DNA of 64,000 bases from Escherichia coli. Lineage in GTDB: Bacteria; Pseudomonadota; Gammaproteobacteria; Enterobacterales; Enterobacteriaceae. The stretch lies in NCBI RefSeq assembly GCF_050320075.1, contig NZ_CP190018.1; one strand, given 5' to 3'. This document shows, piece after piece, positions 41,477 through 63,426 of this stretch (within the stretch, counting starts at the first letter, position 1; each line of letters begins with the position of its first letter). The notes below the pieces were generated by a model that saw only the letters and a list, made by a program, of their open reading frames with translations, was not told where the DNA came from and did not search any database. The translations under genes and the position numbers were made by a program.

Positions 41477-41490
41477 GGTGTTGTTCTCCT

Positions 41491-42875: not shown

Positions 42876-42883
42876 GGCAGCCT

Positions 42884-43136: not shown

Positions 43137-43225
43137 TGCCGATTTTGCGGCAGCGGAAAAACTATATCCGCAAATGCCGGAAAAAGGCAAGCCAGAAAAA
43201 GGGACTTTTTGCAGAACAGGCATCA

Positions 43226-43769: not shown

Positions 43770-43880
43770 GGGTGAACAGTGGTGAACAGACGGTGAACAG
43801 TCATTACTGCGATTGTTCACCCTTTAACTTACTGTATTACTTATCTTTTTTCTTATGGTGAACAGAGGTGAACAGTAAAA
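43770..43880. repeat. P4-type origin of replication: six GGTGAACA / TGTTCACC iterons
   Basis: GGTGAACAGTGGTGAACAGACGGTGAACAG (43771-43800), TGTTCACC (43815-43822), GGTGAACAGAGGTGAACAG (43858-43876), within AT-rich DNA between alpA and sid. Confidence 0.8.
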
Positions 43881-44043
43881 TATAAAAAAACAAACAGTAA
43901 GCCGGTTTTTCCTGCGACCTTTTCCTGGCTTGCCGGTCTGAGGATGAGTCTCCTGTGTCAGGGCTGGCACATCTGCAATGCGTCGTGTTGCTGTCCGGTG
44001 TACGTCACAATTTTCTTAACCTGAAGTGACGAGGAGCCGGAAA

Positions 44044-45275: not shown

Positions 45276-45348
45276 GGGCTGCCGGTTAACACCGGCCGTC
45301 GCCGCACACCGTATTTTTATTCTTCAGCATGATGAGAAAGAGATAACG

Positions 45349-45921: not shown

Positions 45922-46085
45922 AATTCCCCGAAAATCCGCCTGTTTTTACTGAAAAAAGCCATGCATCGATAAGGTGCATGGCTTTGCATGCGTTTTCCTG
46001 CCTCATTTTCTGCAAACCGCACCATTCCCGGCGCGGTCTGAGCGTGTCAGTGCAACTGCATTAAAACCGCCCCGCAAAGCGGGCG

Positions 46086-46104
46086 GGCGAGGCGGGGAAA
46101 GCAC
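46086..46104 (+). other. cos cohesive-end sequence of P2/P4 type
   Basis: GGCGAGGCGGGGAAAGCAC matches the 19-nt P2/P4 cohesive end as I recall it; position just downstream of psu fits P4. Confidence 0.65.
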
Positions 46105-46122
46105 TGCGCGCAACAATGATGA

Positions 46123-47517
46123 TTATGATTTCATTTTATCTGCAATATCTTCTAAGGAATCAAAGAATGCTTTGACAAAGTTGTCTTTATTAACAGTAGT
46201 AAAGTTTTGATTGTAAAATCCTACACATGCAGAAAAAATTGCTCTGCAAGTTAGCTCATTATATTTAGATGAATATAATGGTTCGACTCCACGATACACG
46301 GACCAAGAACCATGAGCTATATCAGACCTAGTCTTATACATTTCCTGAGCCACTCTAGCCCATTTTTTTTCATCTTGATAATAAATAGAAACTAATGAAG
46401 AAACACGACTTACGAAGTTCTTTGTTGTAGATGAATCCTTTTTTTCGCTACTTAGACTAACCAGCCGTTCAAGAGCCGTTGTTAATTTTACTATACGAGA
46501 ACTTTCATCCTTATCCTGTTGTGCGCTACTAAATAAATAGATAGCATCAATTAGCCTGTCTGCAATTACAGAGTTTTCATGAGGTTCTATCGCCAACTCT
46601 ATTAACCGAGAAAGAACTAACCCTAAGTCAGATTTGTAATCATCTTCAAACTTATTCCAAAACTCACCGCTATTGGCTATAGTCCCTTTAGTTGAGTAAT
46701 GATAGTTAAACATTTCGTTTGGTTTCTTGGAAAGATAAAAGCCGTCATAATTTGGGTAAGGATCTGTTGATATACTTAAAAAGTATGGGGAGATATTATA
46801 GTGCACACCAAATAGCTGTAGTATCCCAACCACAAAACATGCAATATTTTTAGCGATTCTCTGCCTACTTAACTTAGAGCGTTTGCTAACAGGGATTTTT
46901 AGGTAGTGTTTATAATGAAATTTATGAGAAGAACAAAATTTCTTAGCTAAATCAAGTTGTTGCTCAGTAAAATCATCACTAATAGTTAAGTGCATTTTTT
47001 CTGCCGATATAATATCAACTCGGCCAATAGACATTATATCTCGTTCCAACCCGTGAGCTAAAATAGGATAATAAAAATCCTCTTCAGACATTTCTCTCCT
47101 TGTTAGTTTTAATGTTTTATTTAGGAGGATAGTACATCCACTCCTGTCGCAACTGCCGTTCTCAACCCAAATATGCATAAACAATATTTTCTTAAGATTA
47201 CTTAAAAATTCATCGGTAGTAACTAGCATTTCTAAGCGATTTGATTTTATAAATCTAGCCGAAATAGCATATAACTTCTCATAAGAGGCATATGATAGAT
47301 GAATTTGAGTTCTAGAAAGATCTGTTCTTCCTTTTATTAGTTCATATGGTGCATCTATGGTCATTCCCAATGAACCAAAATTACCATTATATTCTTTTTT
47401 GTAAAATTCCATAAAATTAGATGAGGATGTTAACTCTTTATTTATTCTAACAGCCTCATCAAGAATAAATTTAAAATCTTTAACGTCTTCCAAACTGGCA
47501 CTCATCATTTTCACCAT
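46123..47517 (-). CDS. uncharacterised 464-aa protein in the P4 psu-int hotspot; C-terminal HEPN-like Rx4H motif; candidate anti-phage effector
   Basis: Strongly AT-rich versus the GC-rich flanking P4 genes; sits between cos/psu and int; C-terminal region contains RSDIAHG (R-x4-H-G, as in HEPN RNases); no Walker or other obvious motif; start overlaps the int 3' end. Confidence 0.7.
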   Translation of the reverse strand: MVKMMSASLEDVKDFKFILDEAVRINKELTSSSNFMEFYKKEYNGNFGSLGMTIDAPYELIKGRTDLSRTQIHLSYASYEKLYAISARFIKSNRLEMLVTTDEFLSNLKKILFMHIWVENGSCDRSGCTILLNKTLKLTRREMSEEDFYYPILAHGLERDIMSIGRVDIISAEKMHLTISDDFTEQQLDLAKKFCSSHKFHYKHYLKIPVSKRSKLSRQRIAKNIACFVVGILQLFGVHYNISPYFLSISTDPYPNYDGFYLSKKPNEMFNYHYSTKGTIANSGEFWNKFEDDYKSDLGLVLSRLIELAIEPHENSVIADRLIDAIYLFSSAQQDKDESSRIVKLTTALERLVSLSSEKKDSSTTKNFVSRVSSLVSIYYQDEKKWARVAQEMYKTRSDIAHGSWSVYRGVEPLYSSKYNELTCRAIFSACVGFYNQNFTTVNKDNFVKAFFDSLEDIADKMKS

Positions 47518-48685
47518 TTAAATTAATAATAAAATCACTATACCACTGCATCATTTTCTTTCGATCTTCTATATACTGTGCATGATTATATACACCACGT
47601 ATCGTGTTTTTATCCACATGAGCCAACTGCATTTCAATCCAAGCAGTATTAAAACCATTTTCATGGAGTATTGTTGATAATGTATGCCTAAATCCATGTC
47701 CTGTAAGTTTTCCCGCATAGCCTATGCGTTTGATAAGTTGATTAACACTTGCCTCACTCATAGGTTTGTTTGGATCATTCCGTCCCGGGAAAACATAACG
47801 ATAATTTCCTGTCATAGATTTAAGTTCATTAAGAAAGCCTAATACCTGGGTCGATAAGGGGACTAGGTGCGGCCTACGCATTTTCATTTTTTCGGCAGGA
47901 ATTTCCCAAATAGCGTTGTCCAGATCAAACTCTTGCCATAATGCCGCTCGCAACTCGATAGTTCTAACCCCAGTAACCATCAATAATTTTGTGGCAATCT
48001 GAACAAGTCGGCTTCCTGCATAACTATCTAAAGCACGCAGAAAATCAGGTATCTCATCTGATTTTAAGAAAGGAAAATGATTTGATTTGTGTACTTCGAG
48101 GGCACTGGACAGATCTGCCGCAGGATTAAACTCTGCTCTTCCGGTAGCAATAGCATATCGAAAAACCTCTGAGCAACGTTGCCGCACTTTGCGCATTTTC
48201 TCCAATGCACCACGTTTCTCAATTTTACGCAGCACATTTAGCAATTCTAGCGGTTTAATTTCCCCTACAGGCCTCGTCCCTACATACGGAAAAATATCAT
48301 TTTGGAACGCCTCAATAATATCTGAGGCATACCCAGCAGACCATTTTGCCGACTTCATCTGATGCCACTCTCTGGCAATCTTTTCGAATGCGTTCTCAGA
48401 TTGAATTCGTAATGCTAATTTTTGTTCTTTTCGAACCTCACTAGGATTTTTTCCCTCGGCCACTATTTTTCTGGCCTCATCACGGCGGGCGCGAGCTTCA
48501 GCAAGTGTGATCGTTGGATAAACACCAAGCGAGATCATTTTAGGTTTACCTGCATAGCGATAACGAAATCGCCAGCTTTTACTTCCATTTGGCTCTACAA
48601 GTAAAGACAACCCTTGCCCATCCCCAAGTGTATAGGCTTTAGCTTCAGGTTTAGCACGGCGAATCTGCATATCATTTAGGGGCAT
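47480..48685 (-). CDS. int: P4-type tyrosine integrase
   Basis: 401 aa; N-terminal arm-binding region (MPLNDMQIRRAKPEAKAYTLGDGQGL), C-terminal catalytic region (HGFRHT...YNHAQY); start faces the tRNA fragment 165 bp away. Confidence 0.95.
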   Translation of the reverse strand: MPLNDMQIRRAKPEAKAYTLGDGQGLSLLVEPNGSKSWRFRYRYAGKPKMISLGVYPTITLAEARARRDEARKIVAEGKNPSEVRKEQKLALRIQSENAFEKIAREWHQMKSAKWSAGYASDIIEAFQNDIFPYVGTRPVGEIKPLELLNVLRKIEKRGALEKMRKVRQRCSEVFRYAIATGRAEFNPAADLSSALEVHKSNHFPFLKSDEIPDFLRALDSYAGSRLVQIATKLLMVTGVRTIELRAALWQEFDLDNAIWEIPAEKMKMRRPHLVPLSTQVLGFLNELKSMTGNYRYVFPGRNDPNKPMSEASVNQLIKRIGYAGKLTGHGFRHTLSTILHENGFNTAWIEMQLAHVDKNTIRGVYNHAQYIEDRKKMMQWYSDFIINLNGENDECQFGRR

Positions 48686-48849
48686 GTGTATAGAATTCCA
48701 AAATCGAACAGGAACATATACATAATCCTATACACATTTAGTACTGGATTCTACTGGAAGGTTATGGACTAACACGGACAACGATAACAAAAAATCTTTT
48801 ATAAAACAGTATGCTTATGGACAAATACGGACGTTTGAAGAAGTTGGGA

Positions 48850-48896
48850 TGGTGCCGATAATAGGAGTCGAACCTACGACCTTCGCATTACGAATC
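48850..48896 (-). tRNA. 3' fragment (~47 nt) of a thrW-type tRNA-Thr(CGU); attachment-site core, not a complete tRNA
   Basis: Minus strand reads GATTCGTAATGCGAAGGTCGTAGGTTCGACTCCTATTATCGGCACCA (anticodon loop with CGU through T-arm to CCA); the sequence 5' of it cannot form acceptor and D stems. Confidence 0.8.
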
Positions 48897-49126
48897 TGTA
48901 GCACCAATCATAACTATCTGTTTTAGCAAGCATTAACCGCATTCACCAAGCAATAGTTGATGGCACAAACAGAAAGTTGATGCATGATGTTGTCATGTGT
49001 ATGTCACAAATACGGCACAACGATCTTCAAACATGTAGCCACTCAGCATAGAAGAGCACAAAGCCTTGCAATCCAGTGCAAAGCTTTGTGTGTCTCAGTT
49101 TTGTTTCATCTGTAATTATGTGTTCG

Positions 49127-49429
49127 CTACGATGCAAGAATCCATACCGATAAGCATCCGATAATTGGGAAAGAAAAATCCAACAAACTTCCCACACCCC
49201 ACGCGCGCGGATCAAAACCGCCCCACCACGGCATATTCATACGCTTGCCATGCCCGAACATTTCAATCCAGCGATATTCTGCCTGGGTGTGTTCACGCGC
49301 AATGAAGAACGTACAACCGGCTATCGCACCGTAAGCCCAGTTTCCGGTAAAAAGACCAATCAGTAGCTGCGCAGCCACAGCACAAAGTGCATGAAGTAAG
49401 GGTGTTATATCCATTTTCATCCTACCCAA
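49127..49429 (-). CDS. hypothetical small membrane protein (100 aa) between the att core and oac
   Basis: ORF with two hydrophobic segments; function unknown. Confidence 0.4.
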   Translation of the reverse strand: MGRMKMDITPLLHALCAVAAQLLIGLFTGNWAYGAIAGCTFFIAREHTQAEYRWIEMFGHGKRMNMPWWGGFDPRAWGVGSLLDFSFPIIGCLSVWILAS

Positions 49430-49885
49430 TAAAACGGGGCGCTCGGCCCATTAATATTATTTAGACGCAAGCGCTGCCTCAATTGCAGATAACATTTGTC
49501 TTAATTCTGCGTTTTCTTCTTCCAGTGCTGTTATTCTGTCGTCTGACTCTCTGGCTACCTGAACAAGCAAGCCAGTAACACCAGAATAATCTACAGTGTA
49601 ATACCGTTCACCTTCTTCACCTAAAGGATGACAAAATCACATAAATAATTTAAAAATCATAGCATTAGATTACTTAATGATTAAATAATAGACTGCGAAA
49701 CGCGACAAAACACAACATATCCAGTCACTATGAATCAACTACTTAGATGGTATTAGTGACCTGTAACAGAGTATTAGCGCAAGGTGATTTTTTGTCTTCT
49801 TGCGCTAATTTTTTGTCAACGCACTGGGTTAGTTGAATTTACAACCATGCTCAGTTTGGTGATCTCTTTAGGTCGATTGTTATGG

Positions 49886-50926
49886 TTATGCTCTGCTTGA
49901 TTCAGTGATTTTGGAATCCTGCATTTTAGTAATCATACCCATAATTTTATGCCTAAGCTTTTCCATTGGGTTTTCGATTAGATAAAAACTTACCGCCCCA
50001 ACTAAGATTGATGCTACCATCGTTGCTATATACATATAGAAACTGATTCCTACGTACCACACACCCATTGCTAGAATCAGGAAGTGCCATAGGTATATAG
50101 AGAAGCTCCATTTACCAATGTAAGACATTAACGGTGTTGACAGAGCCCAAGCAAATACACCTTCTCCATAGCTCATTAGCAGAACAATGAGTCCAAATAT
50201 TGGCGCATAGAAAATAAATTTGTTGAGAACCCATCCATCAGTAAACCCACCAGTTAACTTCCACATAACTTTAGGCAGTGCAATAAGCATTGATACAATA
50301 AAGAACAGGAAGGCTATATCAGACAACTCTTGACCAATTTTAAGGAAATTATCGTGATAGAGAAATGCTGCAATCATTCCGCAAGCAAACAGTGGGAAAT
50401 ACCACATCACCATTCCGCCATACGCACTATCCATCGCAGGGTACAATCCCTGTAGCAATACAGCCAGTGCGAAAATAAGGAATGCCGCTGCTTTTCCATT
50501 GTACACTTTTTGAATTGCGACACCAGCATACGCAAAGAATGGAAGTATGAAGTAGAATTTATACTCAATTGGTATTGTCCAGAAATGAAGCACGGCCTCT
50601 TTCATCGTTATGATTGAGATTGCCGTATTCAAATCAAAATACCCAAAATATGAATACACGAGAACAGCTATTGCGAACACCGGAAGGATTCTCATTGTTC
50701 TTCCAAGGAAATAACTTAAAAGAGACCGCCAGGAAAATCCGGTAGAAATAAATCTACTGGTTAGCAAAAATGCGCTGAGAACAAAGAATATCCAAACGCC
50801 AAACTGTGAACTTCCACCAAGCATAACCTCATACTCATGAAAATATATTCCTGTAGCGTGGGCTATTATTACAAGGAATACCGCTATTGCCCTTAGTCCA
50901 TCAAGAGACTTGATTTTACCTTTCAT
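49886..50926 (-). CDS. acyltransferase-3 family O-antigen acetyltransferase (Oac-like serotype-conversion enzyme)
   Basis: Multi-pass membrane protein with N-terminal LDGLRAIAVFLVIIAH (acyltransferase-3 signature); AT-rich; directly downstream of the tailspike gene; start probably the internal Met. Confidence 0.8.
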   Translation of the reverse strand: MKGKIKSLDGLRAIAVFLVIIAHATGIYFHEYEVMLGGSSQFGVWIFFVLSAFLLTSRFISTGFSWRSLLSYFLGRTMRILPVFAIAVLVYSYFGYFDLNTAISIITMKEAVLHFWTIPIEYKFYFILPFFAYAGVAIQKVYNGKAAAFLIFALAVLLQGLYPAMDSAYGGMVMWYFPLFACGMIAAFLYHDNFLKIGQELSDIAFLFFIVSMLIALPKVMWKLTGGFTDGWVLNKFIFYAPIFGLIVLLMSYGEGVFAWALSTPLMSYIGKWSFSIYLWHFLILAMGVWYVGISFYMYIATMVASILVGAVSFYLIENPMEKLRHKIMGMITKMQDSKITESSRA

Positions 50927-51009
50927 TTCTTTCCCAGATATGGAGTGAACATCTGCGAAAATGTAGCACATTTCAAGGTAAACAAGAAGCGCATCCATGC
51001 GCATTTTCA

Positions 51010-52929
51010 TCACCCTGCCTTGGTGTATGTCCAGTTAAATGTTGTTGTTCCCTGGCTTGTGATGGTTACAATCCTTCCTGTCACTGTAAATGATATCAAC
51101 CCTCCTGACTTAAGCGGAGTTAAAGTAAGTGTTGTTCCGTCCCACATGGCAAGCTGAAGCGAAGAGAAATTTGTTCCACTGCTTTCTGCCCAAACGCTTA
51201 TCAGGTACATCCCTTGGCTATTTGGCAGTTCAAACAACGTAGTTGCTACGTTAGCTGCAACAGCCTGAGTTCCTTTCGCTGTGTACACTGCTGGCAACTG
51301 ATTACCTGCAGAGCTTCGTGATTCAACATATGAGCCTGAAGTTTGCGTCCCAGTTAATGAGCAGTCAGTAAATACTCCATTCCCTGTGCTGTAAGTTGAT
51401 ATTACAGGAGTCCCACCAGTCGGAGCCTTAAACCGGCATCCCTCAGCAATTATTTTTGCTGTTGAGTCTGTCAGCAATGTGTTTGGGTATCCAGAGCCAG
51501 TGTAGGTTATTGATTCGCTATCAAGGAAGCTATCGGTACTTGATTTTATGTTAACAATGCTTGTGCCTGTTGCAAAGATAAATGCTGCTGTCCCACTCCC
51601 CGTTGTTTGCATTGAGTTTCCATGCCCGGCCAATCCTGATATATGGGCAATAGTATCATTAAGTTTTATATACGACGCAGTAATTCCATTTGTATTTTTT
51701 ATTATATTAGACTCACCATCATACCCTGTAATAGTAAGACACTTACATCCAGAAAAATATAACCCTGAGGAATCAAATGTATATTGCGACCCGTCAACTG
51801 TGATCTGGTCTCCTGCACAGTTTATTAGCTGAGGAGACAGGCAATTTACAACATACCATGCCTGTGCTGCATCCAGCACATAACATGTATCCCACTGTAT
51901 TGTCGTTCCGTTCGCCTTATAGAAACCATGCGCAACTCTCCTCGCCCATACCTGGGTATACTTTGTTAGGTAATTTCCAGAGTCATCATATATGGCCCAC
52001 CATGCACCATCAACCTCAACATTTTTAATGTGCATAACGCCTGGTGAAGTAGTTCCTCCATCAATTAGAATGCCAATTTTACCATCATTGCCAGTAGGTG
52101 ATGTAGGGCGTCCTCCATCGTAAAAAATATAGACATTTTCAATATTTATTGTATTAAACGCTGCGTGGTAATGGAAACAAGCTATATTTCCTATTACTGC
52201 TATGAAAGTTTCCGGCCTATTTATGTTGCTGTTTGTTTCGCCATTTATTGTGCAGTTTGAATTCATCTCTATCGTTGCATTTACGAAGTAAGTTCCAGAT
52301 GTCAATAATACATTCCGCCCTGTATTAATTGCGGCCTGTATGCCTGCATAGTCAAGAGACTGAGTTAGTGATGTTACGAATGGATAAACAGCCTGCGCCG
52401 CTGATAGTGTGGAGAATTTCTCGCTGAGTGGATGCAGAGTTCCGTCAGCTGTTGCACCGAAATCCTTGGCTGAAATGAAGTTGGTATTTTTATCATGTTG
52501 AGTTAAAGCTATTGAGCCGATATATGGCTGCTTAACTGCAACTAGTGCATCTCCCATTCCATCAGCATCGCTTTCTAACTGCTGCTTAAACTGATCAGGG
52601 TCATACTTCAGCACATTAGGAAAATAGAACTGCTGTGCACCATACGCATCATATACAGCCATAGAATGGCCTTGCACAGTTACGAACTTGGCAATCTGTC
52701 CGTTATATACAGGGTAACCAGCGGCGTTAATGATGATTGGTTGCGAAACAGGAACGTGAGAGCCGTCTTCGTTCTCTACATAAACCTGAATCTGGTTTTC
52801 TGGATTTACTGGGTCCGTGTCAATTTTACCGATATAAATTTTGCCATTGGCAACCGCTTTAAAAGAACGCGCCATAGTGAAGAGTTGCGAAGGCATGCTT
52901 ACCACAACATTTGCGGTGATATCTGACAT
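51010..52929 (-). CDS. tailspike protein: P22-type head-binding N-terminal domain with a different, AT-rich receptor-binding body
   Basis: From the internal Met: [43 protein letters not shown]... closely resembles the P22 gp9 N-terminus; remainder is Ser/Thr/Gly/Asn-rich and AT-rich. Confidence 0.85.
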
Positions 52930-53017
52930 TTCATTGCTCCAGACGAATGATATGATGCAACCATGATGTGATTGCATACCGAAATGGTACTATTGAGTAT
53001 TTATCCAGTAGGTTACG

Positions 53018-53311
53018 ATGCCATTCCACCCAACTGGTGAGGCATCAAGGATGTACAGCAAATACGACGAGGCGCAGTTTCACTTGAGACTTCCGCATGA
53101 ACTCCACGCGAAAATTAAGCAGCGTGCGAAGATGAATAACAGGTCGCTGAACTCAGAGATAATTGCAGCGATTGAGGAATCATTGGATAAACAAAGCTCT
53201 GCATCAGTTTACATTGACGATGCAGAGCGTATGGCAGAACAACAATCTGATATGGTTAAGAAAATTGTCTTTGATACGCTCAAGAAGCTATATAAAAAAG
53301 ACAGCAGATAA
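53018..53311 (+). CDS. Mnt/Arc-like ribbon-helix-helix repressor
   Basis: Resembles P22 Mnt (…RSLNSEIIAAIEESL…DAERMAEQQSDMVKKIVFDTLKKLYKK); located between gene-16-like and tailspike as in the P22 immI region; start may be the internal Met (53051). Confidence 0.75.
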   Translation: MPFHPTGEASRMYSKYDEAQFHLRLPHELHAKIKQRAKMNNRSLNSEIIAAIEESLDKQSSASVYIDDAERMAEQQSDMVKKIVFDTLKKLYKKDSR

Positions 53312-53400
53312 CCATCCGTTACGGAGGATTTATGCACAGAGATATGCTGAATATTGCGTTCTACATATTTGGTTTTTGCACGTTCCTGGTGTTTGCGAAG

Positions 53401-55794
53401 CTATTCTGACAGCGCATCAGACTTAGCCCCCTGAGTCAGGGCGTTAATGGCCTTTTGTGCCTGCTGCATGGCTTTCTCGAACGCTGTTGATCCGCGTGGG
53501 GTGTTTGCCATTCGGAGCATTGCATTTCTGAATGGCTCGCTCTCATAGGCGCGAGTAAGAAGTCCGTAGCTTACCGCTGCGCCAGTTGTCGCAGGGTTCA
53601 TTGCTGTCCCATATCCGATAATGAACGGGATGGTTTGCTGCCCTGTTGGTGTTGTTACTGCCGCTTTTGCAGCCTGCTGCGTGGATTGCAGGTAGTTTTT
53701 CAATCCTTTCAGATAAGCGGCTTCCTGACCTTTAAATGTGATGCCAGTCTGGTTTTGCAGGATGTTAAGCTGTCGAAGGAACTGGTCAGGGGAACCACCT
53801 GATTTCTCCATCGCCTTTCCAATGATGCCATTGCGCATTTGCGCCCTGCCAACACGACCAACTGAGTTATACAGCGTCTTAATTTCCGATTTGTTCTTGC
53901 TGAATAGCATGTTGTTGACAACTTCCGGCGTCAGGTCGCCTTTCATGAGAACATTCTTCAGCCTGGTATTCTTTAGTTTCGCCGCTTCGTCAGCGTAGAC
54001 GGCATTGGCCTGCTGATATTTACGGAGAGTATCGTTGCCAAGATTCTGACCAATGGCACCATTGATATCGTCGGTCATTGCCTTGTAAACGCGCTGAATG
54101 GCAGCATCGGAACGGTTTGGTAACACTGGTCGCTCCCCCTTCACGTCCATTCTGAACTGGCTGCGCAGATCGCTTAATTGCTTCAAATCCAGATTTACCG
54201 GACCATCAGGACCAGCATTGCGAACAAGCTCATCACGATAGGACTGAAGTTTTGAAATAGTCTCGTTATCAGCAACCTTACCAAGCTTCTGCAGGTTAGA
54301 TATTTCTGTATCAATCTGCTGAATTGCTCTTGCAGGCTGAATGTTTATTCCCGCCATAGCATTCTGAACCTGCTCCAGTCGATTTCCTGCAGCGCGACGA
54401 ATTCCTGATGTTTTCGCTTTAAGGCTGTCAATAACAACCGCTGGATCATACTCACCGAATTTATCAGCAAATCTCTGCACCAACTGGCTTCTCGCTTCCT
54501 GTTGCGTTGCTCTCATTCCGCTTGTGCCAGCCAGAGGGATATTTTCTGCTGTAGTCTGCGCCATTTTTCCGACGCGGGAAGTTGGTTGTAACAGGTCTGT
54601 GGTGTGCAGAGGAACTCCTTCACGCTCTGCAAATCTGATAGCCTGCTGCGCTTCTGGCGCGATAGCACCACGAACGCCACGATAAGCAGCACCTAACCCA
54701 CGTCCGGCAGCGTTAATAGCACCGCCAGTAAGTACACCAACGCCTAAATCGGTGGCGAGTGCTTCCGCATCATCTTTCGCACTATTTGCAGCAAGTGATC
54801 CAACTGCGTTTTCTGCGAGAAGTCGTGTTGCCCCCTGAGCAATTCGACCAGCAAGTGTTGGTGCCTGTGCCGCCGCTCTCTCAACGCCAGCAGGAGTGAG
54901 GTAAGGCAATGATTCAGCAAATACCCTTCCCTCTGTCGTTTGTGGAGTCAGCGCGCCTTGCTGAAGGCCAAAGTCCTGCTCTAATCCCTGCGTTGTTACT
55001 CGTGGCGCTGGTTGATATGTCCCATCGCCAATGCCGAGTTTACCTCCAGCCCAAGCCGCCGCGCTTGTTACAGCATCAGTGAGTTCAGCAGGTATGTTCG
55101 CTACGTTGATTCCTGCCTGTAGTAAGCCGCGCCCGGTTTCAGCAAGTCCATTACCAAGGTCAGACATTATTCCGCCTTGCTGCTGAACAGGTTTCGGTGC
55201 GACAGAACTTACGGGTTGAGGTGGCTGCTGACTGGCTGCCTGCTGCTCAATCTGAGCAAATGGATTATTTGGGTCTGACTGCACGCCTGATGCCGATACT
55301 TGTTCGGATGACTGTGCTTCCAGTTGTGCAAACGGGTTGTTAGGGTCTTGCTGAGGATGTACCTTTGCAGAGGTGGCGCGCTGTTCGACTGTTGAGTCTG
55401 TCACCGGGTCACCCGCCCATTGAGCAAAGCGATCATCAACGTAACCGCGGCCTTCAGGTCCTGGCGTATATTCACCACGCTTTGCCTTCATAACGTTGCC
55501 GGGACCGTCGTGATAAGCCTGAAGAGCGTCACGCCAGTTACCAAACTGCTGGTACATCTTTGCCAGATAGCGCGCGCCAGCGTCAGCCTGATATTCGGGG
55601 TTTTGCATTTGCTCATCGGTATAACCCATATCACGCCATGTCCCAGGCATGACCTGAGTCAATCCTACAGCCCCGGCGGAGCTTACTGCGGCAGGGTTGT
55701 AAGAAGACTCCTTGGCACCCAGTGCAGTCATCAACCCTTCTGGCACACCGTAACGTGCGCCAGCCTGCTCTAACAAATCACGGTAATTAGCCAT
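53401..55794 (-). CDS. DNA ejection / internal virion protein (P22 gp16 position) with N-terminal lytic transglycosylase domain
   Basis: 797 aa; N-terminal SLT motif (GLMTALGAKESSYNPAAVSSAGAVGLTQVMPGTW), Gln/Ala-rich remainder. Confidence 0.75.
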   Translation of the reverse strand: MANYRDLLEQAGARYGVPEGLMTALGAKESSYNPAAVSSAGAVGLTQVMPGTWRDMGYTDEQMQNPEYQADAGARYLAKMYQQFGNWRDALQAYHDGPGNVMKAKRGEYTPGPEGRGYVDDRFAQWAGDPVTDSTVEQRATSAKVHPQQDPNNPFAQLEAQSSEQVSASGVQSDPNNPFAQIEQQAASQQPPQPVSSVAPKPVQQQGGIMSDLGNGLAETGRGLLQAGINVANIPAELTDAVTSAAAWAGGKLGIGDGTYQPAPRVTTQGLEQDFGLQQGALTPQTTEGRVFAESLPYLTPAGVERAAAQAPTLAGRIAQGATRLLAENAVGSLAANSAKDDAEALATDLGVGVLTGGAINAAGRGLGAAYRGVRGAIAPEAQQAIRFAEREGVPLHTTDLLQPTSRVGKMAQTTAENIPLAGTSGMRATQQEARSQLVQRFADKFGEYDPAVVIDSLKAKTSGIRRAAGNRLEQVQNAMAGINIQPARAIQQIDTEISNLQKLGKVADNETISKLQSYRDELVRNAGPDGPVNLDLKQLSDLRSQFRMDVKGERPVLPNRSDAAIQRVYKAMTDDINGAIGQNLGNDTLRKYQQANAVYADEAAKLKNTRLKNVLMKGDLTPEVVNNMLFSKNKSEIKTLYNSVGRVGRAQMRNGIIGKAMEKSGGSPDQFLRQLNILQNQTGITFKGQEAAYLKGLKNYLQSTQQAAKAAVTTPTGQQTIPFIIGYGTAMNPATTGAAVSYGLLTRAYESEPFRNAMLRMANTPRGSTAFEKAMQQAQKAINALTQGAKSDALSE

Positions 55795-57126
55795 TTACTG
55801 CCCCAAAGATGGAAGATATCCGTAGCGATTAATGAAGTCGATTGACAGTTCGGGGTGCTGCTTCAGGTAATCTATAGAAGCCTGAGGCGCTTCCACTCGC
55901 TTGATACCGTTTTGCTGAACGTACTTACCAACCGCCTCATTACGCTTCTGGTTGAGCGTGTTCAGGATGACGCCAGCGTTGCGACGAAAGGACTCCTCGC
56001 TCTGCGAGTTCTGCAGCGAACCAACAGCCTGGTCGAGCTTTTTGCCCTCGGCATCAGAAAGTGCGCCCATGCCTCGCATGGCCTGAACCGCTGTCAGGTA
56101 TGCTTGTGATTTAAAGGTATCAAGTCGTGCCTGAGTGTCTGCAGCCTGTGAGCCTGGAACGTTGGGGATTACTCCACGTAAGCCTGTAATGCTCTTAAGT
56201 GAAGGAGAACTAACGATATCGTTCAGAGTGAACATGCTGGTTGTGAGGGTGTTGATGCCGTCTTTGTAGCCATCATTTAGCGCTTGCTGCTTCTGCTGCA
56301 ACTGCTGGTTGTTGGCTGCTATGCGGCTCTGTATTTCCTGGCGCTTCAGGTCGTTAGTTTCTGCTGATAGCATCCGGTCAAGGCGCTTATTTTCGTTGTT
56401 AATGCGGTTTGTTTCTGCGTCCAGATTAATGCGCTGCTGACCTAAATTCGCCTGGATATCTTGCCCGCGCATTGTGATTGCTTGATTCCGAGCGGCGGTT
56501 TGCGAATCCAGGTCCTGACCGCGCATGGCAACCTGGCGACCCTGCATTTTATCCTGTAGGTCAAAGTATTTTTCGGGTCCGAGACTGTTCATCCCCAGGT
56601 GATCGACAAATTCTCCGAACTGCCGCGGGTTCTGTTGGTACATCTGAGCGACGTCCTGAGGATTAACGCCAACACGAGCTAACTCACCGGCGTTGTTTTG
56701 CAGCCATGATTGCATTGCTTCTGGAGACGATGACGCAAGGCGTGCGCCAGCCGCTAAGGTGCCGATAGAATTACGCTGGTCTTCATCAATGAATCCCATG
56801 CCTTTACGAACGGATTCAATCTGGTCTGGATATTGAGTAGCCAACTGACGCAAAGCACCGCGATCACCAGAAGCATAAGCATTAGCGTATGCCTGCTGAA
56901 ATTCTTTCTGCCGCTGAGCCTGCTTTTCCTGCTGAAACACCCCCGCAATACCTGAAAGGCCTTGCAAAGCAGTCAGCCCAACATTGTTAGCTCCTGAACG
57001 CTCAATATCATTGTTCTGCCTGATAAGCTGAAGCGTATTGCCGATGTCATTTACGCTCGGAGCGTTTGAGTTGACGCCGCCGATACCAGCCAACAATCCG
57101 CCATTTGATCCTTGCCAAGTAGCCAT
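55795..57126 (-). CDS. DNA ejection protein (P22 gp20 position)
   Basis: 443 aa, Gln/Asn-rich coiled-coil protein; position. Confidence 0.7.
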   Translation of the reverse strand: MATWQGSNGGLLAGIGGVNSNAPSVNDIGNTLQLIRQNNDIERSGANNVGLTALQGLSGIAGVFQQEKQAQRQKEFQQAYANAYASGDRGALRQLATQYPDQIESVRKGMGFIDEDQRNSIGTLAAGARLASSSPEAMQSWLQNNAGELARVGVNPQDVAQMYQQNPRQFGEFVDHLGMNSLGPEKYFDLQDKMQGRQVAMRGQDLDSQTAARNQAITMRGQDIQANLGQQRINLDAETNRINNENKRLDRMLSAETNDLKRQEIQSRIAANNQQLQQKQQALNDGYKDGINTLTTSMFTLNDIVSSPSLKSITGLRGVIPNVPGSQAADTQARLDTFKSQAYLTAVQAMRGMGALSDAEGKKLDQAVGSLQNSQSEESFRRNAGVILNTLNQKRNEAVGKYVQQNGIKRVEAPQASIDYLKQHPELSIDFINRYGYLPSLGQ

Positions 57127-57135
57127 GATTACCCC

Positions 57136-57828
57136 TTAAAACAACGAGCCAAGCAATCCGATACCAGCACCAATGCCAGCGCCCCAAGGTGTTGATGTTC
57201 CCAAAAGGCTGGCAAGACCTGCACCGGTAATCGCACCAGACGTGCCACCGCTAATTGCAGTCTGAAGACTTGATGGTTTATTGGCATTAGCAGCGGCAAG
57301 AGCTGCGCTTTGCTGTGCAATGCTGCTCATGTTGTTGGCGTACGTCTGCCCGGCGTTTGCCTGACCTTGCAGCGCACCAAGCCCAACGTTTGCCAGATTG
57401 TTGTAATTGCTCATCTGATTTGATAACCAAGACTGACCGAGTGTCGGCGCGATCGTAGCCAGTTGATTGCTTGTGGCTGTCGAACCAAGTCCACCCGTCG
57501 CCTCCGCAGCAGCAAGACTCTGGTAACGCGCCTGCCCTGCAAGGTCTTTATACTGCTGAGAGTTGTAATACTGATTAAGTGCCTGCCCCTGACCTTCTAA
57601 ACTGGAAAGGTTCTGAAGCTGGTTAACATACTGCTCCGCAAGAGGCGTGAACGGAGCAAGGTTTTTCATGATCGTCTGCCACTGCTGATTTTGCAGATCT
57701 GCAGCATACTTCTGAGCTTCTGCTGCATACTTTGCGCTTTTATCAGAACTGCCACCTTTCCCGCCTTTTTCAGGGCAATAAGGTTCCTCGCCGCGCAGTT
57801 TTCTGCCCAGCTTAAATGCATATAACAT
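57136..57828 (-). CDS. DNA ejection protein (P22 gp7-like)
   Basis: 230 aa; MLYAFKLGRKLRGEEPYCPEKGGKGGSSDKSAKYAAEAQKYAADLQNQQ... near-collinear with P22 gp7. Confidence 0.85.
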   Translation of the reverse strand: MLYAFKLGRKLRGEEPYCPEKGGKGGSSDKSAKYAAEAQKYAADLQNQQWQTIMKNLAPFTPLAEQYVNQLQNLSSLEGQGQALNQYYNSQQYKDLAGQARYQSLAAAEATGGLGSTATSNQLATIAPTLGQSWLSNQMSNYNNLANVGLGALQGQANAGQTYANNMSSIAQQSAALAAANANKPSSLQTAISGGTSGAITGAGLASLLGTSTPWGAGIGAGIGLLGSLF

Positions 57829-57830
57829 GG

Positions 57831-58289
57831 CTATCTCCCGTGATTCAGGAAGTCGATTAGTTCTTCGCGTGTGGCGCTGTAAAAAGTCACGTCATCCACG
57901 CCTTTAAAGTATTTCTTGATGGTTCCGACACGCTTAAGGCCAATCATTGCGCAGTACATCTGACCGTGGCGGAATTTGCGTGCAGCGAACGATGTTACGC
58001 ACTGAACGGTGGTGTTAGTCAGAATGTATCTCCAGAACGCCAGCCCGATTTCCTTGCTGAAGCCGCGAATCTCTGGCAGGTACATGGCGTGGCAATCGAA
58101 TGTCAGCGGCTGAATCTCTTGATAGTAAACAATGCCGCCAAACTGACCGTGCACGTTAACCTCAAAGTAACGGCATTCAGGCTTGTAGTCGTATCCATCA
58201 CCGTTGTTGCTTCCGGCAATAATGTCAGGGTGATTTCCGACTGCTTCGATCAGGTCGATGTTTCGCGTTGGTTTGAACTGAATCATCAC
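57831..58289 (-). CDS. head assembly protein (P22 gp14 position)
   Basis: 152 aa; position between tail needle and gp7-like genes. Confidence 0.6.
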
Positions 58290-59134
58290 TGCTCCGCGAT
58301 TATCTTGATGGTTGTGGCAGTAAACGCCGCACCATTCGACTGAATGGTTAACGTACTGCCATTTGTGGCAAGAAATCCGTCTTTATCCACGCTGAAGAAC
58401 GTAGCTAACAAGATGTTATCGGTTGTTGTCGCCGAGTTGCGACTGCTTACCAGTGTGTCAGGAACAGAACCGGAAAAGGTTAGCTGCATTGACCTGTTGG
58501 CTGTTCCGCTGGGCCACGTCCCGACAATCGACAGCTTGAAGAACAGGGTTTTGTTCTCGTTGAACACAACCATCTTGTTGTTAACGGTGTCGAAGAATGG
58601 CGCCAACGCGCCGGATGACGGCGTGAGCGTTTTCAGCAGGCTAACAAGGTTGGTCGGCGCTGTCGGGATGGTTACAGATACGCCAGAGTAAACAACCTCT
58701 GACTTTTTGCGAGTAGTGGCATACTCCAGAGCATCGATGCGCGTTTCATGGTCTGAAACCTGCGATTCCAGCGACTGAACTCTGGTATCAAGCGACGCAA
58801 TATCGCTTTCATTCTGAGCTATTCGTGTTTCATGTTCCTGAAGAGTTGATTCTGCCTGGCTGATTCGCTCCTCATGATTAACAAGCGTTGCTTCCGCAGC
58901 AGAAATTCGCTGCTCATGGTCAGCGAGAATCACATCCTGCTCATCGTTCCTGACCTGTGCATCATAAGCGCCCTGTCCGGCCTCGTTGGCCTTGTTAGCC
59001 ACGTTACCAACATCAGTGCCCTGTGCGATAACGTAAAGCAGATACGACTGCGAGAAGATATTGCGTGGAAGGACTGATGTGTCGAGCCGCGTAGCCTGGA
59101 TGATTACCGGCACATTGAGATTCGAATCCGCCAT
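58286..59134 (-). CDS. tail needle protein (P22 gp26-like) with extended C-terminal knob
   Basis: N-terminus [43 protein letters not shown]... matches P22 gp26; heptad coiled coil ([37 protein letters not shown]), then ~110 extra residues. Confidence 0.85.
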
Positions 59135-60552
59135 TACTCAATCCTTATCTGGCAGCCAGACAGAGTGACAGGTGACTTCGTGATAACGCGCAATTTGAAG
59201 CCGACATTTTTCCTGATGCGCCCTACTCGCTTCCACAAAACGCGTTTGTCGTAAACGAACGGTTCATTCTGCTCAATCATCTGCTCACGCCCGTAATTGA
59301 TGCCGTCAGTGGTTGCAGAGAGAAAAAGGCGGTCAGCATACTGCGCAACGCCAGTTGACGATTCAACCTCAAGGTCGAACACTCTGGCGTTATCCGCTTT
59401 GAACAGTGGAGTAAACAGCAGGTGTTCCTGTTGCTTGTCGTACTGGCTGCTGATGTCGAATTGCAATTTCCCGGTCACGGACTCCAGCTTATCGCCACAC
59501 GTTATCTGATTGCCTTCGTAAATGAAGTCGATAGCGCGGTACACATCGTCATACAGGCCTGTTTTCAGCACACACCATTGCGGACCATTGGCACTTGAAG
59601 ATGCGTCGTACACGAGGACGTGACGCGGAAGATGGATAATCAGCAACTCATGAGCATCAAACCGCAGCGATTCCATCACACCATCAGCCAGTTCATCAGC
59701 AGTGTAGGAGCGTAGTATTTTCTCAATGCTCGCGCTGGCGATTGGTGACACCTGACCGGAGCCGATGATGTATACAGACGGCGCACCTGTTGCCGGATTG
59801 CTGATAAACGCATAGGAATCAGCAAACGGCGTTTTGCAGTAAGTCCCGGCGATTCCTTTTTGCACCATCAGTGATGGCTGTGCGACATACAAAGCGGCAC
59901 CAACGGTGGTTGCGCCAGTCAGGGAGAAATATTCAATCGTCGATGAACCAAAGCAGACGATGAAGTCTCGCCATGTTCCGATGCCGATGATGCCGTCCGG
60001 CTGCGATTCTGCGCGATATTGTGCACTGTATCGGTCAGGGTGCGATTCGTCTTCAAGGTCAGTGATAAACCATGAATCAGTTCCGTCTTTTGACCACGCA
60101 TAACGCCCACGTAAGCGCGTAATGTCGCGAACTGAACCTAACTCGTACTGTGTGAATCCGCTGTCTGTAGGCCAGTTTGAGACGGTTTTAACCGTGCCAT
60201 CATAGCGATACTCGACCAGTTGACCATTAACGCCTACCGCCTGTGATGTTCGACCATGCGCCATTGATACTCTACCACTTCCGGCAACATCACCGACTTC
60301 ACTTTCTCCTTTGTACAGCTTGCCACCACACACGCGATAAACAGCACTCTGCGCCATGTTGTACTCGACGCCGCGAGATACACCGTTCACATCAGAACGT
60401 TTGGCAATGCCCGGGAATGAGCGAAGATATCCGCTGCTGTTGAGTATTTCTTTGGGTGTAGCCAGCATATTCACTGGCATATAGTCGATATAGTCAGCGT
60501 TTCTAAAGTCTTTGCCGACACCTTTCATAAGCGGAAGTTGCTGAATCGGCAT
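59134..60552 (-). CDS. tail hub / tail accessory factor (P22 gp10 position)
   Basis: 472 aa; position between gp4-like and tail needle. Confidence 0.75.
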
Positions 60553-60560
60553 TTATTCAC

Positions 60561-61043
60561 CTATGCGTTTGGGATATCGCCATCAATCAGAGGGAGATCG
60601 CCTGGGTAATATCGGTCAGATGTGAACACGTCATATTTATTACCCTGCCCTACAGGAAAATCTCCACGTCGTCGCATTGAAGGAACAACCAGAGTGTCGG
60701 TCATCAAGGCATCATATGAGCGTTGGGCGTTACTGAGAACTTGCGGAGTTGGCTCAAGGCTGTAATCAGATAGCATTCTCAACAATAACTGATAGCCTAC
60801 TGCGTGTTTGTATTTTCTTGGAAGACCTGACTCATCATCTGGTAATGGCTGCTCATCTCCAGTTGCGAAAGCGTAACCAATGTCGCCGGGGTTAATCATC
60901 CACTCTGACATCATATCTTCCAGATCATTTACACCATCTTCAATTGATTGCGGCTCAACATCAGTCAGCGATGCATTAGAAGCAATAGCAAACTTACGAA
61001 GCGCAAAAAGGACGATCTCACCCTTTGTCAGTGCTGTTGCCAT
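60561..61043 (-). CDS. tail accessory factor (P22 gp4 position)
   Basis: 160 aa; position after coat gene. Confidence 0.65.
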   Translation of the reverse strand: MATALTKGEIVLFALRKFAIASNASLTDVEPQSIEDGVNDLEDMMSEWMINPGDIGYAFATGDEQPLPDDESGLPRKYKHAVGYQLLLRMLSDYSLEPTPQVLSNAQRSYDALMTDTLVVPSMRRRGDFPVGQGNKYDVFTSDRYYPGDLPLIDGDIPNA

Positions 61044-61245
61044 TGTCCGCCGCCTTACGACCTCGCTTACTGGTCGGTTTCAATTCATCAACTGAGGCAA
61101 CAAAGCCCAACCTTTCGAAAAACTGGAAGTCTTTTTCTGCGATAACGGCCTGTACATGCCCGGATTCGTTATCTGCGGCAAGGAATACACTCATCCGATC
61201 CATATTGTTTCCTTAAAACATAAAAGGGGCGTAAGCCCCTTGTTA

Positions 61246-62517
61246 TTACGGATTACCGAAGAACTGACCGCCCATGTGAGGGTTAAAGCACACATATGCA
61301 GGAAGTAAGTCGAAGCGCATTTTTTGCACGTTGGCATCGCCATCTGCGTATTTATGTACGCGGATGGAGAAACCTTCATATGTTGCAACAGCAGAATCAA
61401 TACTGTGCAGTTTCGGCAGTGGGATAGAGCCAAGTCCACAGAAGAACTTGTTATAGAACAGGTTTGGCTTCATTGTCTGGCTAGCAGTGCCTACTACAGA
61501 TACGGCATCGCCTGCCTCTACCTGACGACTTACAGAGTTGTACTGCGGGTTTGTAGTGTCATAAATCGGAACACCAGAAAGCGTAACCGTCACATCGCCA
61601 CTGCTGTCTGAATTAGCATCAGCAGTAACCGTTGCAGTGAAGCTAATTGGTGTGGCTCCGTTATACAACGCCTGTTTGGTCTGCTGTTGCAGCCAGTAGG
61701 TATTGGTGAATTTAACCTGATCACCAGCTTTCAGAAAACCTGTAACGCTGGCTGTCGCTCCGGTCAATGTTACAGTGAACTGGTATGAGTCTTTAACTGC
61801 GTTATAGGTAACAGTTGGCTGTGTTTTGACTGTCAGTGTTCCGCCAAATGCCCCCTGCGTACGAGAGGCAAGCCCATTAGACATCAGTGCGCGAATGCCG
61901 CCAAAATTGGTTGGAATCTGCGCATTCTCCCATGCAGTACGAACCAATTGATCTGAAGCGTGCAAACCAGTCTGCGCATCAGCAAGTCGCTGTGCAGACC
62001 ATGGATCCATTACAGCATAGTTTTCACCTTCATTAACGCCGAGGTCTTTCAGGAAAGATGCCGTCTGCGCAACATCAGACCATTTGGTGATTGGAGTATT
62101 GGGGCTACCAAGTGACAACGCACCGTTATTCATCATGAAGTGAGCAAGCTCTGTTTCAAGGTCGGTAACGATTCGCTGGCGAACCGGCGCGAGAATTTCT
62201 TCCAGTTGGTTAAGCTTGATCGCTTCCTCCAGTTGCTGATATTCAACAGCAACAGTGATGTAGTTACCTACACGCCCCGTAGCTTTACCTGAGATCAGGT
62301 TGTTTTTATTTTGCCCTGAAATATCACCAGTGGGAGTACGGAGGGATGAGAATTGATGCGGACGTTTAAAGCTAACGCTATCGCCAGTGCTGGAGTTGAT
62401 TTCACCTGCCAGCAACTGACGGTCTACGGTTTTCGCCAGAACTAAATCTGACATAAAACCCGGAAGGAATTTTTTCAGAACGATTTGACTGACGTTACTG
62501 TCGAGATTGTTAGGCAT
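61246..62517 (-). CDS. major capsid (coat) protein, Sf6-type
   Basis: 423 aa; length and position (after scaffold) fit the Sf6-like HK97-fold coat protein with insertion domain. Confidence 0.8.
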   Translation of the reverse strand: MPNNLDSNVSQIVLKKFLPGFMSDLVLAKTVDRQLLAGEINSSTGDSVSFKRPHQFSSLRTPTGDISGQNKNNLISGKATGRVGNYITVAVEYQQLEEAIKLNQLEEILAPVRQRIVTDLETELAHFMMNNGALSLGSPNTPITKWSDVAQTASFLKDLGVNEGENYAVMDPWSAQRLADAQTGLHASDQLVRTAWENAQIPTNFGGIRALMSNGLASRTQGAFGGTLTVKTQPTVTYNAVKDSYQFTVTLTGATASVTGFLKAGDQVKFTNTYWLQQQTKQALYNGATPISFTATVTADANSDSSGDVTVTLSGVPIYDTTNPQYNSVSRQVEAGDAVSVVGTASQTMKPNLFYNKFFCGLGSIPLPKLHSIDSAVATYEGFSIRVHKYADGDANVQKMRFDLLPAYVCFNPHMGGQFFGNP

Positions 62518-62528
62518 TTATCTTTTCC

Positions 62529-63413: not shown

Positions 63414-63426
63414 TGATTACTCCTGG

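Follow-up and report, generated by a model that had tools for sequence, protein, structure and literature searches.

The ejection gene cluster and the gp16 body

The window analysed here, a 64,000-nucleotide stretch of an Escherichia coli genome, includes genes of a P22-like (Lederbergvirus) prophage in which an intact 797-aa open reading frame is the final gene of the gp7-gp20-gp16 ejection cluster, positioned between gp14 and the tailspike region. Its ATG abuts the stop codon of the gp20 homologue (TAAATG), genes for homologues of P22 gp20, gp7, gp14, the needle protein gp26, gp10 and gp4 lie upstream, and the tailspike gene lies downstream. The initial annotation had described a last ejection protein of 797 aa at the gp16 position, longer than a P22 gp16 of about 609 aa; the exact reading frame, these neighbours and the length of P22 gp16 (609 aa) agree with that description. 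Copies annotated in other E. coli genomes are 100% identical, and the counterpart in phage IME10 is 99.1% identical. The protein is a further example of a known protein type, which is present in the isolated phages IME10, Sf101, and phiKp_30 and is already annotated in RefSeq as "lytic transglycosylase domain-containing". Coordinates of the features are summarized in Table 1.

Table 1. Features of the gene 16 region and neighbouring genes (window coordinates; residue numbers refer to the 797-aa protein unless another protein is named)
Feature	Position	Strand	Basis or remark
Ejection protein at the gene 16 position (797 aa), made up of SLT domain, linker, and Sf6-gp13-type body	53401..55794	-	ORF call; identical annotated E. 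coli copies
Lytic transglycosylase domain (SLT/GH23) at the N-terminus, aa 1-128	55411..55794	-	Pfam, AF2, Foldseek
Predicted catalytic Glu codon, E29 (E-S motif)	55708..55710	-	Alignment with Slt70 E478
Q/P/A/S/E-rich linker, aa 129-207, predicted disordered	55174..55410	-	pLDDT 50-63
First DPNNPFAQ motif, aa 150-157	55324..55347	-	
Second DPNNPFAQ motif, aa 174-181	55252..55275	-	Peptide identical to first copy; synonymous alternatives at 6 of 8 codons
Mosaic junction, codons 205-206 (QQQG/GIMSDLG)	55177..55182	-	Homology switch
gp16 body, aa 208-797	53404..55173	-	97.3% identity to Sf6 gp13; PHROG 770
gp20 homologue, 443 aa	55795..57126	-	PF16928
gp7 homologue (first ejection protein)	57136..57828	-	PF25688, E = 1.6e-134
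gp4 homologue	60561-61043		Same prophage

An integrase gene at 47480-48685 was considered as the prophage's own and rejected. It lies inside a 10.2-kb thrW-flanked segment that is missing from an otherwise collinear genome, and for this reason we take it to belong to an island distinct from the prophage.

The identity of the body to Sf6 gp13 extends over 590 aa, and falls to approximately 72% with L gp16 and 35.6% with P22 gp16 (E = 1.5e-76). The PHROG 770 profile ("DNA transfer protein") matches aa 108-797 (E = 1e-238), and 1124 cluster representatives of the gp16 family were found at E <= 1e-3. These sequence similarities support the assignment of aa 208-797 as a genuine ejection protein of the gp16/Sf6-gp13 type; P22 gp16 itself is packaged in the virion, is released before the DNA, and associates with membranes (PMC10883804). 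Structure prediction (AF2) divides the body into a Gly/Ala-rich, low-confidence segment (aa 208-365; pLDDT 30-45 over aa 192-365) and an all-alpha domain (aa 370-797; pLDDT >90 from about residue 370). Neither the body nor the full-length model gave a significant fold match in the PDB, the best Foldseek hits being generic helical proteins at E = 0.11, and a relationship in fold between the body and T7 gp16 or any solved structure was rejected on this basis. Internal initiation at the invariant Met210, which would yield a body devoid of the transglycosylase domain, was also considered and is unsupported, given that a weak Shine-Dalgarno-like sequence is found here and in phage L, and none in P22, HK620, or Sf101.

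Transglycosylase domain and linker

The N-terminal transglycosylase domain proposed in the initial annotation was recovered by profile search: Pfam SLT (PF01464) matches aa 7-110 (window 55465-55776) with E = 2.8e-25 and 88.6 bits, the curated cutoff being 21.3 bits. Residues E29-S30 align with E478-S479 of E. coli Slt70, of which E478 is the catalytic glutamate; both are invariant across an alignment of 77 SLT homologues, and all eight columns invariant in that alignment are retained. The GLxQ motif reads GLTQ (G44, L45, Q47). In the AYNxG motif, which reads AYHDG, Y94 and G97 are kept while histidine takes the place of an asparagine that at least 90% of homologues possess, a substitution common to all phage relatives examined. 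A protein-database search with the N-terminal module returned mostly short cellular SLT proteins, which served as an alignment for structure prediction.

The domain is confidently predicted to adopt a lysozyme-like alpha-helical fold, with pLDDT values >90 over aa 1-110 and of 83 and 78 for aa 111-130. Top Foldseek matches of the model were Slt and Slt70 (probability 1.00), MltC and MltE also scored 1.00, and three T7 gp16 chains (7eyb_I, 7k5c_B, and 9jyy_I) were among the matches. The catalytic domain of Slt70 (PDB 1QSA/1QTE) is the best match in both sequence and fold, sharing the GLxQ and AYxxGPG motifs, and is closer in sequence (30-32% identity) than T7 gp16 (19-27%). However, Slt70 works in the periplasm as a housekeeping enzyme and carries a large superhelical domain at its own N-terminus, whereas here the SLT domain occurs by itself at the start of an ejection protein. 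Analysis of the 797-aa sequence revealed no signal peptide, no transmembrane segment (the highest Kyte-Doolittle 19-residue mean, 1.23, is below transmembrane grade), and no cysteine, which fits delivery within the virion rather than Sec export.

Five residue types (Q, P, S, A, and E) make up 62% of the linker. Within its two DPNNPFAQ motifs, N153, F155, and Q157 do not vary among SLT-gp16 proteins from five phage lineages, in contrast to the flanking residues. Tandem Repeats Finder detected no DNA-level tandem repeat in the linker, and the two copies are alike at the protein level only. The linker was also considered as a diverged Sf6 gp13 N-terminus; this was rejected because BLASTP similarity to Sf6 gp13 begins only at G208, and the N-terminal module is therefore a replacement rather than an insertion.

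Mosaic structure and distribution

The mosaic evolution suggested in the initial annotation can be placed at a defined breakpoint. DNA homology of the Sf101 type (98.6%) stops at window position 55177 and homology of the Sf6 type (95.5%) starts at 55182, and matches to E. coli genomes break at the same junction. Seven gp16 types all have Q205, Q206, M210, and D212 in this region. The exchanged segment is not confined to gene 16. Residues 1-207 (SLT domain and linker) and the C-terminal ~260 aa of gp20 (window 55795-56589) constitute one block, visible as a low-diversity region at query positions ~1950-3150. Within this block, the gene-16 portion shows no DNA difference in IME10 or phiKp_30 and almost none in Sf101; it is identical between phages with 67-167 codon differences in the gp16 body, and the gp20 portion shows a single mismatch. 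The whole gp20 homologue is 98% identical to gp20 of Sf101, IME10, and phiKp_30; compared with Sf6 gp12, identity is ~97% over aa 1-180 and ~45% over aa 181-394, and the sequences are unrelated past residue 394. Recombination brought in the SLT module and the C-terminal 60% of gp20 as a single block, and the occurrence of a near-identical block on differing gp16 bodies suggests that its spread has been recent.

Comparison with P22, Sf6, and HK620, which the initial annotation had put forward, together with L and CUS-3, revealed no SLT domain in the gp16 of any of these phages. In Sf6 gp13, P22 gp16, and L gp16, which occupy the same gene position, the N-terminus is short (54-77 aa) and unrelated, in Sf6 comprising 75 residues in place of aa 1-207, and the partner gp20 differs over its C-terminal ~260 aa. 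The reverse combination is seen in Sf101 gp13 (911 aa; the same protein occurs in Huey, Dewey, and APC_JM3.2), where aa 1-183 are 100% identical and the module carries only 3 synonymous codon differences, but the sequence past residue ~206 belongs to another gp16 type that is P22/HK620-like at its start. The same intact protein is found in the plaque-forming phages IME10 and phiKp_30. A probe spanning the gp20 3' end and the SLT module matched 70 of 5426 complete E. coli genomes (~1.3%), 64 of them over at least 80% of its length.

The architecture extends, at the same gene position, to lytic P22-supergroup relatives (Murrayvirus, Sortsnevirus, and Skarprettervirus) and to Kosakonia phages. 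The proteins of Murrayvirus IME_EC2 (gp26), Sortsnevirus IME279 (gp29), Skarpretter (gp17), and Kosakonia phage Kc259 likewise lie after gp7 and gp20 homologues, belong to the same SLT subfamily (~47% identity over the N-terminal module), and share the motifs AYHDGPGN and TPGPEGxxYVDxRF as well as QxATxA and N-x-F-x-Q past the domain. They differ in being longer (977-1047 aa versus 797 aa) and in possessing an extra N-terminal extension of ~30 residues that carries the first motif copy, such that the two copies bracket the SLT domain, whereas in the 797-aa protein both lie past it. A literature search for SLT domains in P22-like gp16 proteins returned only a review denying their presence and genome notes listing a "transglycosylase" without comment, and an earlier mention is possible (Casjens & Thuman-Commike 2011). 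Given this locus and IME10, Sf101, phiKp_30, Huey, and Dewey, absence of the domain holds only for the model P22-like phages. The RefSeq/PGAP name "lytic transglycosylase domain-containing protein" is also carried by gp16 homologues lacking an SLT domain (for example, those of phages VSe13 and S9-5), and the same label is attached to E. coli prophage matches that extend over the body alone.

Proposed role in DNA delivery

For T7, it is textbook knowledge that a podovirus ejection protein carries a lytic transglycosylase; there, the SLT domain is known to be required only where the wall is highly cross-linked. T7 gp16 (internal virion protein D), the precedent for this arrangement (PMC8954989, PMC5380687), is the third and largest ejection protein, has its gene behind those of the gp14 and gp15 analogues, and likewise has an N-terminal SLT domain with a catalytic glutamate, followed, as here, by a flexible segment. 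It is considerably longer (1318 aa versus 797 aa), and the remaining 590 aa of the protein described here show no likeness to it in either sequence (PDB sequence search) or fold. By analogy with T7, we infer enzymatic activity, virion packaging, and a role in infection for the 797-aa protein, which is probably a virion-packaged, two-module ejection protein whose SLT domain cuts peptidoglycan locally as the conduit assembles. The N-terminal module (aa 1-207) would combine a predicted catalytically competent family-1 lytic transglycosylase with a flexible linker bearing two DPNNPFAQ peptides; enzymes of this family cleave MurNAc-GlcNAc bonds and yield 1,6-anhydroMurNAc products. The C-terminal module (aa 208-797) is an ordinary Sf6-gp13/P22-gp16 body that would form part of a DNA conduit at the inner membrane or close to it. 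On the model of T7 gp16, the protein would leave through the tail once gp7 and gp20 have been expelled, and its SLT domain may then cleave glycan strands locally and allow the trans-periplasmic conduit to pass the peptidoglycan, with the body then completing the channel.

The enzyme cannot be a requirement of the P22-type mechanism, since P22, L, Sf6, HK620, and CUS-3 infect without an SLT domain. The peptidoglycan-degrading activity of P22 virions has so far been attributed to gp4 (PMC5380687), a tail adaptor that is not ejected and that is unrelated in sequence and location to the SLT-gp16 proteins; this prophage also encodes a gp4 homologue.

The domain could have been kept chiefly for a structural or binding function, gripping peptidoglycan or decorating the gp20 tube, but we consider this unlikely. 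The histidine in place of the AYNxG asparagine throughout the phage relatives would be in keeping with such a role, as would the constant co-inheritance of the module with the gp20 C-terminus and the situation in T7, where the N-terminal domain is part of the tunnel structure and gp16-N "wings" decorate the gp15 tunnel (PMC8954989). Nevertheless, preservation of the E-S pair together with every invariant alignment column is unexpected for a purely structural relic, and structural and catalytic roles can coexist. It is highly improbable that the domain instead acts late, as an auxiliary lysin aiding host lysis. SLT domains can serve as endolysins in some phages, and the PHROG matches include an "endolysin"-labelled family, but the protein has neither a signal sequence nor a membrane anchor by which it could enter the periplasm from the cytoplasm, and the protein to which the domain is joined has homologues that travel in the virion and are ejected (PMC10883804). 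Furthermore, a genome with an identical copy holds a separate and complete lysis cassette (holin, GH24 endolysin, and spanin), and hence the 797-aa protein is not the endolysin.

Escape from SieA-type superinfection exclusion, which targets gp16 and gp20, maps to these two genes, among the most variable of the virion genes (PMC10883804), and the near-identity of the block across phages with divergent gp16 bodies is compatible with the mosaic being maintained mainly by such escape, the SLT domain being a passenger on the gp20-C/gp16-N block. This would account for movement of the block but not for the role of the domain, and conservation of the active site as far as the Murrayvirus-type proteins, despite only ~47% identity, argues for selection on the enzyme; we regard the passenger explanation as very unlikely. 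Local peptidoglycan cleavage during conduit assembly remains our preferred reading.

The locus and its relatives amount to a natural experiment in which the same gp16 body occurs with the SLT module (this prophage and IME10) or without it (Sf6), and the same module occurs on two bodies (this prophage and Sf101). With these paired variants, the contribution of the domain to DNA delivery is testable, and the roles of both the enzyme and the gp20-C/gp16-N pairing could be addressed using existing P22 hybrid-phage genetics (PMC10883804).

The DPNNPFAQ pair is one case of a "twin N-terminal motif" that is widespread among gp16-family proteins, other examples of which include NPFDQFD, KPWEKYA, FDPDAYL, and LPEGFEV; these peptides are short, lineage-specific, and usually aromatic-centred. 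We tentatively raise the possibility that such twin peptides are a general and undescribed signal for docking or targeting (for instance to the gp20 tube, to the portal, or for procapsid packaging), that enzymatic cargo such as the SLT domain is inserted between or beside the copies, and that the gp20 C-terminus and gp16 N-terminal module form a co-adapted unit exchanged as one block.

Gene setting and the SLT domain

The 797-aa ejection protein at the gene-16 position is encoded by an unbroken 797-codon open reading frame whose ATG comes immediately after the preceding gene's stop codon (…CAG TAA ATG GCT…), and the genes flanking it on its strand are unambiguously P22-type morphogenesis genes. 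Copies of the gene that are 100% identical occur in three complete E. coli chromosomes under the RefSeq name "lytic transglycosylase domain-containing protein", and window positions 48849-64000 are collinear with E. coli SB0258h1 at 99.97%; the element carrying the gene is a P22-like (Lederbergvirus) prophage.

Features of the prophage and of neighbouring segments of the window
Feature	Position	Strand	Remarks
797-aa ejection protein	53401-55794	-	gene-16 position
gp20	55795-57126	-	PF16928
gp7	57136-57828	-	PF25688
gp14		-	DUF2824
Needle		-	Sf6-type knob
gp10 and gp4		-	P22-type morphogenesis genes
Tailspike	51010-52977	-	downstream of the 797-aa gene
Arc/Mnt-type repressor gene	53051-53311	+	between gene 16 and tailspike, opposite strand
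Acyl_transf_3 acyltransferase	49886-51013	-	overlaps tailspike stop
Segment missing from SB0258h1	38668-48848		~10.2 kb
Imperfect flanking copies	38650-38667, 48849-48880		flank the ~10.2-kb segment
P4-type integrase	47480-48685	-	in the ~10.2-kb segment
Primase-helicase	39143-41476	-	in the ~10.2-kb segment
464-aa ORF	46123-47517	-	overlaps 3' end of integrase gene
RT_UG5-nitrilase reverse transcriptase	34262-37471	+	1069 aa, defence type; PADLOC E = 0
AbiEi/AbiEii toxin-antitoxin pair	32257-33967	-	adjoins RT_UG5-nitrilase gene

The initial annotation had placed a protein with an N-terminal lytic transglycosylase (SLT) domain at the gp16 position, and this is confirmed by the P22-type neighbours together with a Pfam SLT match (PF01464) on aa 7-110 (E = 2.8e-25; 88.6 bits versus a gathering score of 21.3). 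The protein is also, as stated there, longer than P22 gp16, which is indeed 609 aa. Neither SLT nor any other Pfam domain was found in gp16 of P22, L, Sf6, HK620, and CUS-3. Among solved structures, the E. coli Slt70 catalytic domain gives the top sequence match, in an alignment that equates catalytic E478 with E29, GLMQIMP with GLTQVMP, and AYNAGPG with AYHDGPG. An AlphaFold2 model of aa 1-214 has pLDDT >90 to residue ~110, followed by values of 83 and 78 to residue 130, with aa 130-214 uncertain (50-63). Foldseek groups the domain with Slt, Slt70, MltC, and MltE (probability 1.00; 30-32% identity to Slt/Slt70), and T7 gp16 chains 7eyb_I, 7k5c_B, and 9jyy_I also match it (19-27% identity).

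No signal peptide, cysteine, or transmembrane-grade hydrophobic segment was found in the protein (top 19-residue Kyte-Doolittle mean 1.23). In the full-length AlphaFold2 model (108 homologues), aa ~370-797 (window ~53404-54700) are all-alpha with pLDDT mostly >90, and the Gly/Ala-rich aa 192-365, which hold the most hydrophobic segment (345-363), score 30-45. No solved structure resembled the body (best Foldseek E = 0.11) and T7 gp16 was absent among sequence matches to solved structures, so the protein resembles T7 gp16 only in its enzyme domain and overall design.

Mosaic structure and the twin peptide

The suggestion of mosaic evolution is borne out by the origins of the two parts. Sf6 gp13 (665 aa) aligns with aa 208-797 only, at 97.3% identity, and its first 75 residues (MAKAWKDVIASPQYQ…) have no similarity to aa 1-207, the N-module. 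The latter is Sf101-type: over aa 1-183 it matches Sf101 gp13 (911 aa) and proteins of Huey, Dewey, and APC_JM3.2 at their N-termini with 100% identity, and Sf101 gp13 is of another gp16 type after residue ~206. At the DNA level, Sf101-type homology (98.6%) covers gp14, gp7, gp20, and gene-16 nt 1-618, stopping at window 55177, and Sf6-type homology (95.5%) runs from window 55182 to 70 nt beyond the gene-16 stop, besides taking in the needle knob, gp14, gp7, and gp20 nt 1-537. The block exchanged relative to Sf6 therefore comprises the C-terminal ~260 residues of gp20 and the N-terminal 207 of gp16. Relative to its counterpart Sf6 gp12, the gp20 protein is ~97% identical over aa 1-180, ~45% over aa 181-394, and unrelated after 394. 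Comparison of seven gp16 types places the right-hand junction in a short conserved segment, with Q205, Q206, M210, and D212 invariant in all seven.

The linker (aa 129-207) contains DPNNPFAQ twice, at residues 150 and 174 (window 55324-55347 and 55252-55275, minus strand), with six synonymous codon differences; N153, F155, and Q157 are invariant and the surrounding linker variable across five aligned SLT-gp16 lineages. The pattern [NDQE]-φ-F-[ADN]-[QEG]-φ, derived from the window protein and its first relatives, including IME_EC2, matched exactly twice (residues 3-8 and just past the SLT domain) in each of three phage proteins outside its derivation and zero times in the gp20 homologues of those phages, a test that is not fully independent in that the three proteins are homologues of that of IME_EC2. 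In the lytic relatives that bear an SLT domain, one copy lies on either side of it.

Of the 117 full-length sequences representing the gp16 body family, 40 had a significantly repeated 7-mer (p <= 0.01 against 200 shuffles) in the N-terminal module, versus 2/117 for control body segments of equal length. The peptides are lineage-specific (NPFDQFD, KPWEKYA, FDPDAYL, LPEGFEV, GRNFFPE, DRFGGIP, and others), usually with a first copy at residue 2-3 and a second 10-30 residues on; in two representatives the copies bracket an insert of ~110 residues. Cluster representatives with the twin motif include P0132, P0145, P0155, and P0163. No relevant paper on these peptide strings was found in the searchable literature; our guess is a docking or packaging signal.

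Distribution and proposed role

A probe of the gp20 3' end and SLT module matched at least 70 of 5426 complete E. coli genomes, 64 of which cover >=80% of the probe, and the full-length gene with Sf6-type body occurs in at least 51, these counts being lower bounds set by megablast sensitivity. In some genomes of a spread sample the match ends at the module boundary, which we read as Sf101-type. The nearest SLT domains outside Lederbergvirus (55-63% identity, tblastn) belong to proteins at the gp16 position in lytic phages whose virion modules are P22-type (Murrayvirus IME_EC2, Sortsnevirus IME279, Skarpretter, and Kosakonia Kc259), and these proteins have the subfamily-specific motifs AYHDGPGN, TPGPEGxxYVDxRF, and QxATxA in common with the window protein; the domain is therefore of an ejection-protein lineage of SLT and not a recent host-gene capture. 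The gp16 body family comprises 1124 cluster representatives (E <= 1e-3); besides the protein's own cluster, a domain scan of ten representatives that are long or extended at the N-terminus gave two with an N-terminal SLT, so fusion to this body type appears recurrent but uncommon.

T7 ejects gp14 and gp15 first and then gp16, which cuts peptidoglycan with its N-terminal transglycosylase and attaches to the periplasmic tunnel of gp15 through the segment behind that domain (PMC8954989). The SLT-on-ejection-protein architecture is already known from T7. In P22-like phages, gp7, gp20, and gp16 leave before the DNA and build a conduit, and gp16 and gp20 must derive from the same phage to work (PMC10883804). 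On the simplest interpretation, the 797-aa protein would do the same job as Sf6 gp13, with its SLT domain additionally opening murein locally. A purely structural domain is less likely; aligned with 76 other SLT proteins, all eight invariant columns are retained (E29, S30, A42, G44, Q47, Y76, Y94, and G97). The sole deviation at columns >=90% conserved, Asn to His95, is a point in favour of a structural role and is common to all related phage proteins. Late action in lysis is also less likely: the same prophage in SB0258h1 has a separate holin/GH24 endolysin/spanin cassette, so the protein is not the lysis enzyme.

Among the window, IME10, and Klebsiella phage phiKp_30, the 206 gene-16 codons of the block are identical in DNA and a single mismatch occurs in the final ~545 nt of gp20, in genomes whose gp16 bodies differ in 67-167 codons; this pattern suggests recent horizontal spread or unusually strong constraint on the block. 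That selection favoured the block because it evades exclusion systems, with the SLT domain carried along as a passenger, is less likely than local murein opening. Co-inheritance of the gp20 C-terminus and gp16 N-module would fit a physical interaction, as in T7; adjacency on DNA explains it equally well.

The exact protein is already in RefSeq under the right name, and the Sf101 copy is annotated "transglycosylase". P22-like phages carrying such an SLT are not reflected in the searchable literature, outside which lies the key comparative paper (Casjens & Thuman-Commike 2011). The RefSeq/GenBank name "lytic transglycosylase domain-containing protein" is also borne by gp16 homologues that have no SLT domain: Pfam SLT was absent from those of VSe13 (locus L003, 3276-5273) and S9-5 (L005, 3273-5249), which the domain scan covered. 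The E. coli body-only matches H110, H113, and H115-H118 bear the same name. Its source seems to be family members that do have an SLT domain. Representative P0246 (1043 aa) has a C-terminal Pfam InPase domain (PF18823, E = 5e-56), suggesting that a gp16-type ejection protein can also be fused to other enzymatic cargo, here C-terminally.

Other features of the window

SB0258h1, otherwise collinear, lacks the ~10.2-kb segment, which resembles a P4-like satellite or island arranged in tandem with the P22-like prophage. The imperfect copies flanking the segment are presumably the 3' end of the tRNA-Thr gene thrW; no complete tRNA was found within the window. The 464-aa ORF lies where GC content is low (0.36) and had no match in Pfam or PADLOC; it may be a cargo or defence gene of the island. 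The Arc/Mnt-type repressor gene is what is left of the P22 immI region; no antirepressor gene adjoins it. As listed, the tailspike ORF (655 aa) begins 16 codons before the head-binding domain, and the RefSeq start is 52929 (639 aa). The acyltransferase gene lies on the same strand as the tailspike gene, whereas Sf6 oac has the opposite orientation.
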